DNA from: Bdellovibrionales bacterium
Lineage (GTDB): Bacteria; Bdellovibrionota; Bdellovibrionia; Bdellovibrionales; UBA1609
Direction of reading: 5' to 3'
Assembly: GCA_965202645.1 (NCBI GenBank)
Contig: OZ241840.1
Coordinates: 492,088 to 556,087 of the forward strand
Length of the DNA: 64,000 nt
Each line of letters opens with the position of its first letter. Position 1 is the first letter of the stretch. Positions 952-57,212 of this stretch are shown here, piece after piece. Position numbers and translations under genes: made by a program. A model generated the notes under the pieces. That model did no database searches. It was not told the origin of the DNA and worked only from the letters and a program-made list of their open reading frames with translations.

Positions 952-1028
952 TGGTCGGACCGACAGGATTTGAACCTGCGACTTCCACCGCCCCATGGTG
1001 GCGCGCTGCCTGACTGCGCTACGGTCCG
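952..1028 (-). tRNA. tRNA-Pro (anticodon GGG)
   Basis: Reverse complement folds as a cloverleaf: acceptor CGGACCG/CGGTCCG, anticodon stem CCACC/GGTGG with loop AT-GGG-GC, T-loop TTCAAAT, encoded CCA. Confidence 0.93.
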
Positions 1029-1792: not shown

Positions 1793-1870
1793 GGCGGTCG
1801 TAGCTCAGTTGGTTAGAGCTCCAGATTGTGGTTCTGGATGTCGCGGGTTCAAATCCCGTCGATCGCCCCA
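1793..1870 (+). tRNA. tRNA-His (anticodon GTG)
   Basis: Extra 5' G (G-1) opposite discriminator C, acceptor GCGGTCG/CGATCGC, anticodon loop TT-GTG-GT, T-loop TTCAAAT, encoded CCA. Confidence 0.95.
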
Positions 1871-2359: not shown

Positions 2360-2620
2360 CAACTCAATGCTTTAAAATACTCTGCCCATATAGGGATTTT
2401 GATTTTTCGCATAGCATGTTTCGGATAGCTTGGCCAGAAAAGTTATAGTTCAGCCCAATAGCTTAAAAAATAGATTGCCGGCGATAAGCCTAGCCAGCCT
2501 CGCGTGGAGCCTAGCCCATAGTTTGAAAAATAATCATAAAAACAGCTTGTCTTTATAAGCTCAAAGCGCTTTTATGATATAGCTTGTGCGTTTTAAGATT
2601 TTACAGCTTTTTGCCGCGGT

Positions 2621-3175
2621 ATGAAAATTGAGTTTAAAACTTACTTTGACGAGGGCTGTTTCCCGCTCCACAGACTACAGCTTGTCAGAGGATCGCCAGA
2701 GAGAGTCATTTGCTTTCTTATGCTCAATCCCTCTATGGCAGACGACAAAACGGACGACCCGACAATCAAAAGATGCAAAGGCTTTATGACGGACTTAGGC
2801 TATACAGGTTTAATTGTGGTCAATCTCTTTACTGTTATTTCAAAAGATCCGGACAAAATTTATAAAGCTTTGCGGAAAGACTGCGCAATATGGCCAAAAA
2901 GGCTTAAAGCCCAGCCAAACAAGCCTAATTTAAAATCATCAGCTAACCATATAAAATACGCTTTTAAAATTTCTGAAATTATTGTGGCCGGATATGGAGC
3001 TTTAAAACACAAAAACGCAATTAAACGGGCGGAGGAAATTTTTAAAATGACAAAAAAACCTATTTATGCCCTTAAGCTGACAAAGAGCGGCTTTCCGGGC
3101 CATCCGCTCTATTTAAACAAAAATCGCCATTTAACTCTTTTCAGAAGGGCTGGCTCAGGACACAAAATAGCGTAA
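2621..3175 (+). CDS. DUF1643-family protein
   Basis: ICFLMLNPSMADDKTDDPTIKRCKGF...VVNLF matches my recollection of the DUF1643 signature (fimlNPS.ad...DpT...c). No search was run. Confidence 0.6.
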   Translation: MKIEFKTYFDEGCFPLHRLQLVRGSPERVICFLMLNPSMADDKTDDPTIKRCKGFMTDLGYTGLIVVNLFTVISKDPDKIYKALRKDCAIWPKRLKAQPNKPNLKSSANHIKYAFKISEIIVAGYGALKHKNAIKRAEEIFKMTKKPIYALKLTKSGFPGHPLYLNKNRHLTLFRRAGSGHKIA

Positions 3176-3254
3176 AAATAGTGTTGCGCCAGCGCTCACA
3201 AACGGCTTATATTTGTTTGGCCGGAATGAAGCCCGGTTAAAATCAAATTGCAAA

Positions 3255-3869
3255 ATGAGCGCATTGGATCGGGACATAAAAAACACTCTAGGCTACACCC
3301 GGCCCCTCGCTGTTTTAAATAGATGGCTCAAACAAGCTTGTAAAATCAAGGGGATAAAAGAGCCTTGGGCTATGGTTTTATCCACAAGCTATAAGCGGAA
3401 AGCCAGCTCCCGTGTTGTTCTTCTAAAAAAAGTCAATCAAGGACGGCTGATTTTTTACACCAATTATTTGAGCGAAAAAGGGCGGGATATAGCCCACAGC
3501 TCTTGGACAGCTGTTAATTTTTATTGGCCCCAGCTGAGTCAGCAAATCCGCATAGAGGGAAAGGCTCAAAAGCTCAGCAGAAAGCAGTCCGTTTTATACT
3601 GGAAAACCAGATCCCGCTCCAGCCAGCTCAGCCAATGGATCTCAAAACAGTCTCAAGAGGCGGAATCCAGACAACAGCTGAAAAATTTAAAAAAAGCGGC
3701 GGAAAGGCGCTTTAAAAATAAAGAGATTCCCTGCCCAAAAAATTGGGGAGGCTATGCTGTGTCCATTCAGAAAATAGAATTTTGGAAAAACCGGGATCAT
3801 CGCCTGCATGACCGCTTTTTGTTCAAAAAAAAAGGCTCTGGATGGGAAAAACAAAGGCTTTTCCCTTAG
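3255..3869 (+). CDS. pdxH: Pyridoxamine 5'-phosphate oxidase
   Basis: Collinear with E. coli PdxH: RWL.QAC, FYTNY.S.KG, ...WGGY.V....IEFW..R.HRLHDRF...P at the C-terminus. The ORF is open from 3213; the Met at 3255 fits the homolog length better. Confidence 0.9.
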   Translation: MSALDRDIKNTLGYTRPLAVLNRWLKQACKIKGIKEPWAMVLSTSYKRKASSRVVLLKKVNQGRLIFYTNYLSEKGRDIAHSSWTAVNFYWPQLSQQIRIEGKAQKLSRKQSVLYWKTRSRSSQLSQWISKQSQEAESRQQLKNLKKAAERRFKNKEIPCPKNWGGYAVSIQKIEFWKNRDHRLHDRFLFKKKGSGWEKQRLFP

Positions 3870-3886
3870 TTTTAAGCGGGTTGTCG

Positions 3887-4066
3887 CTTGACCTAAATCC
3901 CATTATGATCTTCAGTTTTCCAGAGTTCAAGCTTTTAGGGTTAGCTGTGTTATGGATGGAGCCAGCCGGCTCAAGAGCCGGACGCCCGTCCCGATAAAAA
4001 TAAGCTTGGTCTCTGGAATAAAGGCAGGTTTAGCCTCGTGAATAGGTCAAGAAAGCTAGCTCAATT
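3887..4066 (+). repeat. Family C element, copy 1 (about 180 bp; candidate structured RNA or palindromic MITE)
   Basis: Roughly 85% identical by eye to the reverse complement of 12181-12361. Long-range complementary arms: 3887-3895 with 4043-4051, and 3920-3934 with 4002-4016. Inner hairpins CCGGCT-CAAG-AGCCGG and GGAC-GCCC-GTCC. Confidence 0.6.
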
Positions 4067-4221
4067 TAAAATTTTAGGCCGATTGTTTAACAGCCAGCCG
4101 GCAGGCTGAGGCTGTAAATAAGCCCTTGATTTTAGCTAAAACCGGGTTTTTAAAAGTTTTATAGGCCGGAGCGGAATTTTAAGCTATACTGCATTAGAAG
4201 GCAAGATTTAAGGAGCGCCTC

Positions 4222-5793
4222 ATGGGCTTTTATGAAACATTTTATATCTTTATAATGGGATGGCCTTTTGGCTTTTTGCTGGCCTGGATTTGGAGCAGTC
4301 TGGAAAAAAGGATCATGATCAAAAAAACAAAGCTGGAGGGAGGGCATATCCTCCAAGAGGCTCAAGAGAAAGCGGACGCTTTATTGGAGAAATGCCAAAA
4401 AGAGGCTCAAAGCACGCGGGAAAAAACATGGCGTATCTTTGAGAGGGAAAAAGAGCAAATCAAAGCCCATATCAAAACGCTTCAAGCTGTGGCGGATAAG
4501 AAGTCCCAGCAGTTGGCGCTAAAACACAGGGAAAAGAGCGCCCTTTTTAGCGCGCTGAAAAAAACCGCCCATCACATTCAGCGGGAGCATGCCCATTACA
4601 AAAAACAAAAGAGCCAACTGCGCTTGGATTTAAAACAACACGATCAAGACTCAGCTCAAAAAATTAAAAGCCATTTTTCCATTAACGCGGAAAAGCTAAG
4701 AGAGGAGCTGAAAAAAGAAATTGAGGACAGCTGGACAGATAAAATCAGAGAGGAATGGGAGGCGAAAAGCAAGCATAGCAAACAAAACCTTCAAAAAGAC
4801 TCTGTTTTTCTTTTAAATAAGGCTCTCAGCCGCTTTGACCGAGTTTATTGCCCGGAAAGAGGCATAAGAGCTGTCCCTTTTAAAACAGACAAACAGATGG
4901 AAAGAGCATTTGGCCCAGACAATGTTTATTTGAATGAGATTGAAAAAGAGTGCGGCGTGGATATTTTGCTCAACAAAGAGGACTCGCAGGCCTCTGTTTT
5001 TGGCATCGATCCCGTGCGCCGGGAGCTGGGCCGAGTCACTTTAAAAAAACTGCTCAAAAAGAGAAAAATAGATCTGCCGTCCATAAAAAAAGCTGTTCAG
5101 CGCTCTAAAAAAGATCTATTTGCCAAAATCCGCCGGGATGGGCAGGCCATCTGCAAAAGATTGAGGCTTAAAAATGTGGCGCCGGAGGCGCAAAATATGA
5201 TGGGGGCTTTGAGGTATAGATATTCGTTTGCTCAAAATCAGCACTTTCACTGTGAGGAGGCGGGCTGGCTTTGCGGCTTATTGAGCGCGGAGTTGAGTTT
5301 GCCGGTAAAGCCGGCGCAGAGAGCGGGCATGTTCCATGACATTGGAAAAGCCATGGATCACTCCATTGAGGGAAATCACGCTGTGATTGGAGCGGAGTTT
5401 CTCTCCAAGCATGGGGAGAGAGAGGAGATTCTTCACGCTGTCCGGGCGCATCACCATGATGTTCAGCCCTCCACCGCTTTGGCCTATTTGGTCATTGTCG
5501 CCGATTCTATCTCAGGCTCCCGTCCGGGCGCCCGCAGATTCACAGAGGATTCTTACAGCCAAAAAATGGCCAGTTTAGAGAGAATTATAGACAGCTTTGA
5601 GAACATTGAGGACGCGTATATTATGAGCGCCGGCCGTGAAATGAGAGTTATAGCGGACAACAAAAAAGTCAGCGATCAAGAGGCTTTAGAGCTAAGTCAA
5701 AAGATTGCCAGAAAAATTGAAAAAGAGTGCGCTTATCCGGGATTGATTAAAGTCACTGTTGTTTTGCACAGTGAAAAAACAGCCATAGCTTAG
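4222..5793 (+). CDS. rny: Ribonuclease Y
   Basis: N-terminal hydrophobic segment, long coiled-coil, KH-like region, and an HD domain (GMFHDIGKAMDH...HHHD). Confidence 0.93.
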   Translation: MGFYETFYIFIMGWPFGFLLAWIWSSLEKRIMIKKTKLEGGHILQEAQEKADALLEKCQKEAQSTREKTWRIFEREKEQIKAHIKTLQAVADKKSQQLALKHREKSALFSALKKTAHHIQREHAHYKKQKSQLRLDLKQHDQDSAQKIKSHFSINAEKLREELKKEIEDSWTDKIREEWEAKSKHSKQNLQKDSVFLLNKALSRFDRVYCPERGIRAVPFKTDKQMERAFGPDNVYLNEIEKECGVDILLNKEDSQASVFGIDPVRRELGRVTLKKLLKKRKIDLPSIKKAVQRSKKDLFAKIRRDGQAICKRLRLKNVAPEAQNMMGALRYRYSFAQNQHFHCEEAGWLCGLLSAELSLPVKPAQRAGMFHDIGKAMDHSIEGNHAVIGAEFLSKHGEREEILHAVRAHHHDVQPSTALAYLVIVADSISGSRPGARRFTEDSYSQKMASLERIIDSFENIEDAYIMSAGREMRVIADNKKVSDQEALELSQKIARKIEKECAYPGLIKVTVVLHSEKTAIA

Positions 5794-5837
5794 CCGGCGC
5801 CTCAATTATCACGGAGGCTGGATTTGAAAGCTCGTGC

Positions 5838-5935
5838 TGAGTTCGCCCGCCTTACATTGGACTATAATGTTTCTTATCAAGCTGTCCATTAAGGCATGCT
5901 ATGAAAGAGTCCCTATATTTAAGCATTTTTTATGC
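5838..5935. mobile_element. Degenerate, truncated family B MITE
   Basis: Begins GCTGAGTTCGCCCGCCTTACA and shares ACTATAATnTTTCTTnTCAAGC and TCCCTATATTTA blocks with 1400-1560. The right TIR is absent. Confidence 0.4.
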
Positions 5936-6072
5936 CAAAAACAATGGCTTTGCCCGGCCTTTTAATCCGTACGATCCTCTGGCTCCAAAATAGCTTTCAT
6001 CCCTTGCTATTTGACTTTGGGAAACAGGCTGTTTTTCCCGCAGCGCTCAGCTATTCTTATACAAATGTTTTT

Positions 6073-6336
6073 TTAAGATTTTTTTCCGATATTGCCAAAG
6101 CCTTTATATTTTTTCATAAACTTTTCCGCTCGGCCCTCGGTGTCTAGCAGTCTTTGTTTCCCCGTGTAAAAGGGATGAGACGCGCTGGAGACATCAAAAG
6201 AGACCAGAGGATAGCTTTTGCCGTCAACCTCTATAGTTTGTTTGGTCTCAACAGCGGATTTGGTGATAATTTGAAATCCGCTGGAGATATCCTTAAAAAC
6301 CACCGGCCTTGTTTTAGGGTGTATGTCTTTTTTCAT
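6073..6336 (-). CDS. rpmE2: 50S ribosomal protein L31, type B (no CxxC zinc motif)
   Basis: MKKDIHPK...DVSS.SHPFYTGKQR matches YkgM-type L31. No cysteine pairs are present. Confidence 0.9.
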   Translation of the reverse strand: MKKDIHPKTRPVVFKDISSGFQIITKSAVETKQTIEVDGKSYPLVSFDVSSASHPFYTGKQRLLDTEGRAEKFMKKYKGFGNIGKKS

Positions 6337-6500
6337 GGCAAAAGGTTAAATACCACAAAGCGGCTTGAGATGGCAAGAGTTAAATTCTCAGCTCAATAAG
6401 ATTCGCCAAAATTAGCGCTAATTAACGAAAAATGAGTGGGAATAGGGTCAAATATAAAAAATATTTTGACTTTTAATCTGAAAAGGGATATTTTAAATTT

Positions 6501-14259: not shown

Positions 14260-15011
14260 GGTTCATGACAACTTAAGCTCTGTTTGATAGAGGTTAAGTT
14301 GTTGAAATGACTGTAAAAAACAAGTATTTTCTCCGTTCAAGAATTTCTGAGCCTAAATTTAGGGAAATTGTTAGGCTCTTTTCTGCCGATCTGACAGCCC
14401 AACAAATAGCTTTTTTTTCGGGAATCAGCAGAAACAGCATCAATAAAATCTTAAAAAATATCCGTATAAGAATGGCTGAGCATTGCGAGAAAAATAGCCT
14501 GTTTTCTAAAGGTCAAATAGAAATGGATGAAAGCTATTTTGGGCCTCGAAGAATACGCGGAAAAAAAGGCCGGGGAGCTTATGGAAAAACTATCGTTTTT
14601 GGCGTTAAAAAAAGACAAGGGAAGGTTTATACCCAAATCATTAAGAATTGCTCAAAAAAGGAGGTTTTGCCTCTTATAAGAGATAAAATTGACAGAAAGA
14701 CAACCCTATTTACAGACGGATTTAAGACCTATGATAGTTTAGTGGATTTGGGTTATAAGAAACATTATAGGGTGCATCACGGGAAGAATGAATTTTCTAA
14801 AAAAGAGGGGAAGATAAAAAGCCATATTAATGGCATAGAAAATTTTTGGGGGATCGCTAAAGTGAGGCTTTATAAATTTAGAGGAATGGATAAAAGAACA
14901 TTCTATTTGCATTTAAAAGAATGTGAGTTTAGATTTAATTATAGACAAGATAATTTATATGTGTTATTATTAAAAATCATCAGAAATAGACCCCTTAAGT
15001 TGTCATGAACC
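14260..15011 (+). mobile_element. IS1595-family (IS1016-like) insertion sequence, 752 bp
   Basis: Perfect 18-bp TIRs GGTTCATGACAACTTAAG (14260-14277; reverse complement at 14994-15011). Single transposase ORF. AAATAAA is duplicated at 14253-14259 and 15012-15018. Confidence 0.9.
14307..15008 (+). CDS. IS1595-family (ISXO2-like DDE) transposase
   Basis: 233 aa. The N-terminal HTH-like region, ...EMDESYFG...GKT.VFG...TDG.K.Y....H..V.H and ...HINGIENFW...K match my recollection of IS1016-group transposases. Confidence 0.88.
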   Translation: MTVKNKYFLRSRISEPKFREIVRLFSADLTAQQIAFFSGISRNSINKILKNIRIRMAEHCEKNSLFSKGQIEMDESYFGPRRIRGKKGRGAYGKTIVFGVKKRQGKVYTQIIKNCSKKEVLPLIRDKIDRKTTLFTDGFKTYDSLVDLGYKKHYRVHHGKNEFSKKEGKIKSHINGIENFWGIAKVRLYKFRGMDKRTFYLHLKECEFRFNYRQDNLYVLLLKIIRNRPLKLS

Positions 15012-16515: not shown

Positions 16516-16719
16516 TTTTCTTTCCAAAAGGGAGAATTTGGGCGCTAAAAAGTCCGCCAGCTTAAAGCGCCATGAGCCAAAAGCCTGAGTTCGCCTCTTG
16601 GCTTGGATAAATTGGAAAAGGCTTAAGATATTTTTAAACCGGGTTTGCTTTATTGTCGGGCTTTGCGGACGCTCAACATGAGTTAAGAATCCGAAAACAA
16701 GACTAGCAGGCCGGCGGCC

Positions 16720-52728: not shown

Positions 52729-52868
52729 GCGCCGCATATTCAAAAAATAGGTTGTATTTTTGTTAAAATTCCCTCAAGCTCTAACAATAAGCTTGAGTTC
52801 GTGACGGATCAAGCTATAAAACAGCCCCCGCCCTTTTAAAAATAGCGGGAAAACAAAGGACTGCGCTT

Positions 52869-54990: not shown

Positions 54991-56418
54991 ATGGCTGATC
55001 GTATAGAGACCGACACATTAGGCTCAGTCCGCATTCCTGAGGGAAAGCTTTGGGGGGCGCAAAGCCAAAGATCGCTGGAAAACTTTAAAATCGGGTCAGA
55101 TCTGATGCCCCTGGAGCTGATTCAGGCTTTGGCTTTAATTAAAGAGTCCAGCTCTAAAGCCAATTCCGCTTATGGCCTGCTGGACAAAAAAAAAGCCAAA
55201 TGGATTGAGCAGGCCGCGCGGGAAGTCCAGCAGGGCCGTCTCAATGAGCATTTTCCCCTGACCGTGTGGCAGACAGGAAGCGGCACACAGAGCAACATGA
55301 ATGTCAATGAGGTTATAGCCAACCGGGCCATTCAGCTTTCCGGAGGCCGGATAGGGGATAAAAGCATTCATCCCAATGACGATGTTAACATGTCCCAATC
55401 CTCAAACGACACTGTCCCCTCCGCCATGAGGATTTGCCTTTATCTCTTTATTCAAAAGCGCCTCCGGCCCGCCTTAAATCTTTTCGCAAAGTCTTTGAAT
55501 AAAAAAACAAAAGAGTTCCGGGGCATTGTAAAAACCGGAAGAACGCATCTGATGGACGCTGTCCCTCTGTCTTTAGAGCAGGAGTTTTCAGCCTTTCACC
55601 GGCAAATGGCCCTGAGCCAAGAGAGAATAGAAAAAAGCCTTCGCCACCTGCTTTTTTTGCCTTTGGGCGGAACAGCTGTTGGAACAGGCTTAAACAGCCC
55701 TCCGGGCTTTGGCGAAAAAGCGTGCCATTTTATCAGCCAAAAAACAGGCTATAAATTTGTTTGCGCTTTAAACAAATTTGAGGCTATTTCCGCCCATGAC
55801 TGCATTGTGGAGTTAAGCGGATCCCTTAAAACTCTGGCTGTCAGCTTGATAAAAATCGCCAACGACATTCGCCTGCTGTCCAGCGGCCCCCGCTGTGGCT
55901 TAGGAGAGCTGATTTTGCCCGCCAACGAGCCGGGAAGCTCTATCATGCCCGGCAAAATCAACCCCACCCAATGCGAGGCTTTGGCCATGCTGTGCGCTCA
56001 AGTGATAGGCCAGGATTTAATTGTCAGCCTGGGCGGATCCGGAGGACAGCTCCAGCTTAACGCTTTTAAGCCCCTCATTCTTTTTAACTGCCTTCGCTCC
56101 GCCCGCTTGTTAAGCGATGGCTTAACCAGCTTTAGAGGGAAATGTCTGGAGGGCTTAAAAGCCAACAAAAAAAAGATCAAGAAAAATTTGGACAGCAGTT
56201 TGATGCTGGCTACGGCCCTTAATCCTCATATTGGCTATGACAAAGCCTCACAAATCGCAAAATCCGCTTATGAGAAAGGCCGGTCGCTAAAAGATGAGGC
56301 TGTCCGCTTAGGCTTTTTGACGGAGAAAGAGTTTGACCGCTTAGTCTGCCCGGAAAAAATGATAGAGCCTAAAACGCTCAATCCATCTAAAAAAAACAGG
56401 CCCCCCGGCTCCCGATAG
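54991..56418 (+). CDS. fumC: Class II fumarate hydratase
   Basis: GSSIMPGKINPTQCEA signature, TGSGTQSNMN, and full length of about 475 aa. Confidence 0.96.
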   Translation: MADRIETDTLGSVRIPEGKLWGAQSQRSLENFKIGSDLMPLELIQALALIKESSSKANSAYGLLDKKKAKWIEQAAREVQQGRLNEHFPLTVWQTGSGTQSNMNVNEVIANRAIQLSGGRIGDKSIHPNDDVNMSQSSNDTVPSAMRICLYLFIQKRLRPALNLFAKSLNKKTKEFRGIVKTGRTHLMDAVPLSLEQEFSAFHRQMALSQERIEKSLRHLLFLPLGGTAVGTGLNSPPGFGEKACHFISQKTGYKFVCALNKFEAISAHDCIVELSGSLKTLAVSLIKIANDIRLLSSGPRCGLGELILPANEPGSSIMPGKINPTQCEALAMLCAQVIGQDLIVSLGGSGGQLQLNAFKPLILFNCLRSARLLSDGLTSFRGKCLEGLKANKKKIKKNLDSSLMLATALNPHIGYDKASQIAKSAYEKGRSLKDEAVRLGFLTEKEFDRLVCPEKMIEPKTLNPSKKNRPPGSR

Positions 56419-56429
56419 CTAGGGATCAT

Positions 56430-56586
56430 CCTGAGTTCGCCGTTTTAGACCTTGGCTCAGCATAAAAATTTCTATAAATATAGGGATCCTGATTTTTTCA
56501 TATGTCTTAATTTATAGCTTTACAAGAAAAATTATAGTAAAATCAATAATTTATATACACGTGGCCTTTGTAAGGGCGAACTCAGG
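56430..56586. mobile_element. MITE family B, copy 2 (157 bp, inverted relative to copy 1)
   Basis: TIRs CCTGAGTTCGCC and GGCGAACTCAGG. Flanked by 27-bp direct repeats (56403-56429 and 56587-56613; 25 of 27 identical) that include the fumC stop codon. Confidence 0.75.
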
Positions 56587-56612
56587 CCCCGGCTCCCGAT
56601 AGCTAAGGCTCA

Positions 56613-57212
56613 TTAAAAAAGATTGAGCTGGCCCTCCATTTGAGAATAGGGAAATCGCAAAGGGCTTCGGTCAGACAAATCAATAAGCTTTTTTATATCT
56701 TTTGCGGAGCAAGAATGCTTTTTTAATATATGAATAAAAAGATGGCCGCAATGAACAGCGTCCGCCTCAGCTCTGTGAAATCCATTGGCCTCAATTTTTA
56801 AGCAGTCGCAAAGTGTCGCAAGCTTGTAATTTGGCAGACCGGGAAAGCTTTTTCGCGCCAGCTGGCAAGTGTCTAAAACCATCCCTCGTGGGGCGGGGGA
56901 GCGATGCTCCTCTATAGCTCTCAATAAAAACTGAAAATCAAAGGGGGCGTTGTGAGCGACTAACAGGCTCTGAGAGCAAAACTCGGCAAAAGAGGCCAGC
57001 GCCTTTTCTATAGGAGGCTGGCCCTTTAACATTTCATTTGTAATCCCATGGATCGCAGTCGCCTGCTCCGGCATAGGAATATCAATGGACACCAACTGCT
57101 GATAAGTCTCTTGAGCTTTGCCCTCCACAAAACGCACAGCCCCTATTTCAACAATATGATCCAGATGGCTTAAAGTCCCTGTGGTCTCTAAATCAAAACT
57201 GACAAACTCCAT
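56613..57212 (-). CDS. DnaQ-like 3'-5' exonuclease (DNA polymerase III epsilon family)
   Basis: Exo I FVSFDLETTG, Exo II LVAHNAPFDF, and Exo III H.A.ADA motifs. Confidence 0.85.
   Translation of the reverse strand: MEFVSFDLETTGTLSHLDHIVEIGAVRFVEGKAQETYQQLVSIDIPMPEQATAIHGITNEMLKGQPPIEKALASFAEFCSQSLLVAHNAPFDFQFLLRAIEEHRSPAPRGMVLDTCQLARKSFPGLPNYKLATLCDCLKIEANGFHRAEADAVHCGHLFIHILKKHSCSAKDIKKLIDLSDRSPLRFPYSQMEGQLNLF

Follow-up and report, generated by a model that had tools for sequence, protein, structure and literature searches.

A small non-coding element with long, variable flanking repeats in a Bdellovibrionales genome, and its probable origin from an IS1634-family insertion sequence

How does a mobile element come to lie between two convergent genes within a 27-bp direct repeat that contains the end of one of them, when a second copy of the same element carries a repeat of only 12 bp? 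The question is raised by a 64,000-nucleotide stretch of a Bdellovibrionales bacterium genome (contig OZ241840.1, positions 492,088 to 556,087; hereafter, the window), in which a miniature inverted-repeat transposable element (MITE) follows fumC. An original prediction, made from the letters of the window alone, held that the flanking repeats derive from the target and proposed that they arose by an insertion or repair route different from classical DDE transposition. In this study, we examine the element, its relatives in other genomes, and the insertion sequences (ISs) that share its ends. The data indicate that the element is very probably a non-coding MITE of about 160 bp derived from an IS1634-family IS of Bdellovibrionota/Oligoflexia, mobilised in trans, whose long duplications result from widely staggered joining of its ends to the target.

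Two full, mutually inverted copies of the MITE with shared 12-nt ends are present in the window, as predicted, and they can be aligned over their whole length. Copy B is a non-coding element of 157 bp on the plus strand (56430-56586; nhmmer E=5e-42), with the half that resembles an IS left end coming first on that strand. It starts with CCTGAGTTCGCC and ends with GGCGAACTCAGG, and its 12-nt terminal inverted repeats occupy 56430-56441 and 56575-56586. On either side, and directly abutting it, lie the two copies of the 27-bp target duplication, CCCCGGCTCCCGATAGCTAGGGATCAT at 56403-56429 and CCCCGGCTCCCGATAGCTAAGGCTCAT at 56587-56613, which are identical at 25 of 27 positions. Copy A is a 161-bp element on the minus strand (1400-1560; nhmmer E=1e-48), located between tRNA-Pro (952-1028, minus strand) and tRNA-His (1794-1870, plus strand). 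Its 12-bp target duplication, ACAAGGGCTGTT, is exact (12/12) and touches the element at both ends (1388-1399 and 1561-1572); the probability of an exact abutting 12-mer arising by chance is 6e-8 per element. Both repeats are specific to their locus. Exact ACAAGGGCTGTT occurs within the window only at its two flank positions, and the same is true of the 19-nt core of the 27-mer (0 expected). The 12-mer end itself, allowing at most one mismatch, is found six times in the window, as compared to 0.17 expected. Thus, the predicted origin of the repeats from the target, as well as their unusual and variable length, is borne out at both loci. Around copy A, a promoter-like motif of about 27 nt, (C/T)CGC(C/T)(C/T)GCAAATACACAGGTTGACA, is repeated several times between 1340 and 1720.

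The consequences of the insertion are clearest at copy B. Upstream is the intact fumC gene for a class II fumarate hydratase of 475 amino acids (54991-56418, plus strand), and convergent with it is an intact gene for a DnaQ/RNase T-type exonuclease of 199 amino acids (56613-57212, minus strand), whose ortholog on contig L123 carries PF00929. The fumC product ends in ...NRPPGSR, and the TAG stop codon that follows (56416-56418) occupies positions 14-16 of the left repeat. In full, the 27-bp repeat consists of the last 13 coding nucleotides of fumC, the TAG, a spacer of 10 bp, and one base of the exonuclease stop codon, its first on the plus strand, with which the right repeat ends. In the left copy, the 11 nt after the TAG are former spacer. 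The element therefore lies outside both genes (the fumC boundary is at 56418 and that of the exonuclease gene at 56613), and, because the duplication covers both gene ends, each gene retains a full 3' end, as had been proposed. Removal of the element and one repeat copy yields a site with a single CCCCGGCTCCCGATAGCTARGGMTCAT and convergent stop codons 10 bp apart. The next FumC relatives are 83-79% identical, and the named ones belong to Oligoflexia or Bdellovibrionales metagenome-assembled genomes (MAGs). The closest of them (83% fumC protein identity) has the same gene order, fumC followed by the exonuclease gene and a helix-turn-helix gene on the opposite strand; in OZ220490.1 a different downstream neighbour lies beside fumC. 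The terminus of the window FumC, ...MIEPKTLNPSKKNRPPGSR (56380-56418), exceeds those of the closest relatives, with endings near ...MIKPK or ...MIKPN, by 2-14 residues, and this tail is not conserved.

Decayed copies accompany the intact ones. A search with a profile built from the MITE copies (nhmmer) placed a decayed copy, predicted at 5838-5935, at 5837-5949 on the minus strand (E=3e-9), with one recognisable end (GCTGAGTTCGCC at 5836) and the other lost. It also revealed one that had escaped the earlier list, at 2355-2479 on the plus strand (E=7e-7), of which the interior alone remains. The dispersed copies within 64 kb are, then, two intact and two decayed. Of two lone ends that had been proposed, one is an exact 12-mer, CCTGAGTTCGCC, at 16584-16595 on the plus strand; it is intergenic, and its first 19 nt resemble the IS left end found in contig L121, with no similarity further in. 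The other, at 52797, has three mismatches and is probably a chance match. Because of the two mismatches in the 27-bp repeat and the two decayed copies, the data suggest that the window copies are not recent.

The variation in repeat length extends to other genomes. A scan of reference genomes with the degenerate end CCYGAGTTCGCCSTTWYA listed mostly chance matches, and it yielded related MITE copies together with a remnant of an IS (L083, described below). At least six further MITE copies were found in two other assemblies, OZ220490.1 (a Bdellovibrionales MAG) and an Oligoflexia MAG, with homologous MITEs that are 70-77% identical. One of these (L011) is flanked by a repeat identical at 69 of 70 bp that abuts both ends, another (L001) by a repeat identical at 18 of 19 bp with a 3-bp spacer beside a degenerate end, and a third (L018) by an exact repeat of 8 bp. 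Flank duplications are therefore the rule for these MITEs, with a length that differs from copy to copy (8, 12, 19, 27 and 70 bp), and the tabulation of further copies did not reduce them to one fixed short length. A metagenome scan with CCTGAGTTCGCCCTTWCAAA gave no matches, and a scan of viral contigs for the ends gave three, all unrelated.

A different non-coding element, of 621 bp, bears the same ends (CCYGAGTTCGCCGTTTTAG...GGCGAACTCGGG) at positions 4353-4973 of contig L010, in a MAG labelled Propionibacteriaceae. It is highly repeated in that MAG, where it breaks contigs (at the ends of L013, L014, L020, L030, L041, L062, L091, L094 and L097), and its sole complete copy has no flank repeat. 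The terminal sequence is thus also present in a distant, or mis-binned, lineage.

An autonomous partner with the same 12-bp ends had been suggested as something to look for, and intact ISs of 1857 and 1878 bp with such ends are present in related assemblies. Contig L083 has a MITE-type end 120 bp upstream of a 180-amino-acid open reading frame (ORF) that matches the N-terminus of NF033559, the IS1634-family model (E=5e-7). A search with this transposase fragment returned truncated relatives only, two of whose contigs were informative. In L121, an exact end, CCTGAGTTCGCCCTTT, lies 115 bp upstream of a 279-amino-acid fragment that scores 122 bits on NF033559 (cut-off 100). In L122, a frameshifted IS of 1645 bp has CCTGTTTTCGCCCTTT at both ends and three ORF pieces that are colinear with the IS1634 model; the direct repeat that abuts this IS measures about 280-294 bp. 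A transposase profile search then gave many intact proteins of 535-570 amino acids (among the best 120 of 829 matches). The IS copies analysed here are those with the transposases closest to the fragments (94-99.6% and 86% identity), and they were reached by protein similarity alone.

These full-length copies, all in related Bdellovibrionota/Oligoflexia assemblies, carry the same ends and longer repeats. Three copies of the 1857-bp IS (L130, L131 and L132) have exact CCTGAGTTCGCC at both ends, a 539-amino-acid transposase, and perfect, abutting direct repeats of 133, 90 and 116 bp, respectively. Five copies of the 1878-bp IS (L133-L137), with an identical 557-amino-acid transposase, occupy one 1.87-Mb chromosome (ENA ERZ26051513 contig_7). 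Repeats of about 30, 281, 230 and 463 bp flank four of them (L133, L135, L136 and L137); those of 281, 230 and 463 bp are 100% identical and abut the IS. On NF033559 the 539-amino-acid protein (P0140) scores 296.8 bits, the 557-amino-acid protein (P0170) 304.8 bits, and P0124 122.3 bits, all against a cut-off of 100, and for transposases of the P0140/P0170 type no other family model reached its cut-off. The IS repeats thus measure 30, 90, 116, 133, 230, 281, about 285 and 463 bp. The full-length IS is apparently active in this lineage.

Further features of these contigs were noted. At L135, the 281-bp duplication (2101-2381 and 4260-4540) takes in the 3'-terminal 174 bp of a lon protease gene and ~100 bp from the end of a convergent 105-amino-acid gene, so that, as at fumC, gene ends are preserved. 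The flanks of the L134 IS (2382-4259) contain what looks like a duplication of about 1.9 kb, which abuts both IS ends and has a mosaic identity, with three blocks at 99.7%, 84.7% and 92.6%. An exceptionally long target duplication that was later partly overwritten is one reading, and an older paralogous region another. In L083, positions 56-1521 form a 1466-bp composite bounded by MITE/IS ends, which contains a full MITE copy (56-239), a degenerate end (241-256), a hicA-hicB toxin-antitoxin pair and a truncated IS1634-family transposase. On either side of this composite lies a perfect repeat of 55 bp or more, the left copy of which is clipped by the contig start. In L122, a long array of 39-bp tandem repeats within a large gene (5600-6400; faint ALTTAQ repeat match) adjoins the decayed IS.

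The MITE and the IS are linked by more than their outermost bases. At the termini, the MITE and the intact 1857-bp and 1878-bp copies share 12-16 nt without a mismatch, and the MITE and IS right ends agree at 20 of 21 positions. When the MITE profile is compared with the two ISs, its positions 73-162 match the final 88 nt of the 1878-bp element (E=9e-6), and its positions 101-162 match the final 62 nt of the 1857-bp element (E=1.5e-3). In addition, CCTGAGTT fits the terminal consensus of the IS1634 family, C-----YT (PMC2266710), since its first base is C and a T stands at both position 7 and position 8. An IS1595-family IS within the window (14260-15011) was rejected as a partner because its ends (GGTTCATGACAACTTAAG) bear no relation to the MITE ends. 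That IS is complete, with 752 bp, perfect 18-bp inverted repeats, a 233-amino-acid transposase (NF033547, 154 bits) and a 7-bp AAATAAA flank repeat, and it is inserted in a cysteine-rich gene.

How might such an element generate its repeats? The MITE retains the presumed transposase-binding ends (CCTGAGTTCGCCCTT...AAGGGCGAACTCAGG) plus about 88 nt of the IS right end, and since it keeps these ends, the full-length IS would supply the DDE transposase that moves it in trans. By general DDE chemistry, the transposase would join the two 3' ends to opposite target strands, here far apart and at variable spacing. Host repair would fill the single-stranded gaps, so that the interval between the two joins would appear as flanking direct repeats, with an outcome of 8-70 bp for MITEs and 30-463 bp for full IS copies. 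At fumC, the joining points would have bracketed the whole interval from the last 13 coding nucleotides and TAG, through the 10-bp spacer, to the first base of the exonuclease stop, which would leave a complete 3' end on each gene's side of the insert.

Several observations weigh against this explanation. One of the related MITE copies (L007) has no recognisable flank repeat, and none was seen beside L125 and L129, two intact IS relatives that are more distant and differ in their ends. A DNA-level empty site was not found at fumC, since the spacer of the closest relative consists of 800 bp of unrelated sequence. When MITE interiors were globally aligned with the ends of the 1857-bp IS after removal of the 16 terminal nt, the left half was not significant (z 0-0.7) and the right half was marginal (z about 2); past the ends, homology of MITE and IS is thus established in the right half alone. 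There is no IS1634-family transposase in the 64-kb window, and none from the window's own 2,207,895-bp contig is among the best 120 of the 829 transposase matches, so that any partner in the source genome is putative. The window copies may be fossils.

Among the alternatives, the least improbable is that selection maintains the element chiefly for a role as a functional RNA or as a regulatory module (small RNA, terminator or promoter), with mobility secondary. The intergenic position of the copies and an RNA fold z-score of -3.9 are in keeping with this idea. Yet the stable fold stems mainly from pairing of the terminal inverted repeats, no Rfam family reached its threshold (best 25.7 bits against a gathering score of 50), no terminator-like site was found, promoter-like matches are at chance level, and two of the four window copies are decayed. 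We consider this alternative very improbable.

Even less probable is a transposase-independent route, in which the element would be captured at a staggered double-strand break or copied in by template switching during replication or repair. The lengths of the repeats are too variable for the fixed geometry of an active site, and the statements on long IS1634-family repeats in a 2008 review come without a mechanistic model (PMC2266710). However, the trait goes with a single set of terminal inverted repeats and a single transposase family, through MITEs and full ISs and through several genomes, and for that reason the route is not needed. The junctions are also precise to the last base of the inverted repeat, whereas capture by repair would predict imprecise ones. 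The original prediction of a route outside DDE transposition does not hold, since the MITE ends are those of an IS with a DDE transposase (L130-L137) whose own repeats span 30-463 bp. The repeats are true target duplications, and the enzyme behind them is a DDE transposase from a family that is known, if atypical, with no new insertion route.

A third alternative holds that the flank repeats pre-existed and that the element prefers to land between two short tandem or dispersed repeats, nothing being duplicated. The missing nucleotide-level empty site leaves room for it, as does L134, where the apparent ~1.9-kb duplication with its mosaic identity of 85-99.7% may predate the insertion. It is nevertheless very unlikely, because in each of about 14 independent insertions the repeat is a different one, specific to its locus, and begins exactly at the element ends. 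Moreover, seven of the repeats show 100% identity across 90-463 bp, the window repeats occur nowhere else in 64 kb, and a tandem fumC stop region before the insertion lacks independent support.

IS30-like elements, which are known for duplicating palindromic targets, or the IS1202 long-duplication group might also be invoked as the source. This is the least probable of the alternatives: 27 bp does fall within the 16-28 bp of the IS1202 group (PMC10132070), but that family is excluded by its 5'-TGT...ACA-3' ends, as compared to CCTGAG...CTCAGG here, the observed range of 8-463 bp goes far beyond its own, the same ends bound IS copies that score 297-305 bits on the IS1634 model with no other model reaching its cut-off, and no IS1202-type or IS30-type transposase bounded by CCTGAGTTCGCC ends was found.

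With target duplication by an IS1634-family transposase as the preferred explanation, the distribution of repeat lengths bears on how it might operate. The MITE repeats are shorter than the IS repeats (p=0.003 by exact Mann-Whitney, in a small, non-independent sample). The difference may reflect mechanism, namely a constraint imposed by element length, or survivorship. With regard to the latter, long repeats may invite recombinational loss of the insert, and the MITEs, 70-77% identical between genomes, may be old and the IS copies, with their perfect repeats, young. With regard to the former, duplication length could be limited by the length of the element, from 8-70 bp for MITEs of ~160 bp to 30-463 bp, and possibly ~1.9 kb at L134, for ISs of ~1.86 kb. 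Such a limit would fit ends that attack the target independently, outside a tight paired-end complex, and that are tethered by the element DNA alone. This mechanistic proposal is tentative and, because the sample is small and not independent, rather unlikely to be correct. If true, the MITE and IS pair would represent a natural length series for solving the mechanism of IS1634 and IS1549.

The finding is explained by a known family and is not to be taken as a new mechanism; its value for an old mechanistic question is moderate. A five-copy IS and a 160-bp derivative with the same ends provide a compact set of substrates for the study of how two strand transfers become uncoupled. For annotation, insertions of this kind duplicate gene ends, such as the fumC 3' end in the window or those of lon and its neighbour at L135, and can therefore occupy the space between closely packed convergent genes and leave them undamaged. 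They leave behind short pseudo-3'-ends, which gene callers may misread.

What is new here, modestly, is a MITE derivative and a new host lineage for an oddity already described in the IS1634 family. Long, variable duplications were reported for this family in 1998-1999, and the 2008 review gives, for IS1634 and IS1549, direct repeats of 8-514 bp and no mechanistic model (PMC2266710); none was found in later papers. The partner IS resembles IS1634 (Mycoplasma mycoides) and IS1549 (Mycobacterium smegmatis) in its DDE transposase, likened to theirs by its score on the family model NF033559, in ends that fit the family consensus C-----YT, and in long, copy-specific, variable direct repeats (8-463 bp here, MITEs included, as compared to 8-514 bp in the review). 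The host lineage differs, being uncultured Bdellovibrionota/Oligoflexia, and so does the window element, which is a non-coding derivative of 157-161 bp rather than a full IS. In an incomplete literature collection, no paper on an IS1634-family MITE with such repeats was found. Typical IS1634-family members, such as ISGka5, have a transposase of the same family as the partner IS and short duplications of 5-6 bp AT-rich tracts (PMC2266710), 6 bp in the case of ISGka5 (PMC8024623). The IS1202 long-duplication group likewise makes unusually long duplications, the 16-28 bp of which overlap the 27 bp seen here, and differs in its TnsB-related transposase, its TGT/ACA ends and its narrower range of lengths (PMC10132070). 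Classical bacterial MITEs are, like the window element, small and non-coding; they end in inverted repeats, occur in several intergenic copies and are presumably mobilised in trans. They generally carry the short, fixed duplication of their parent family. Unlike them, the element described here inherits duplications that are long and variable.

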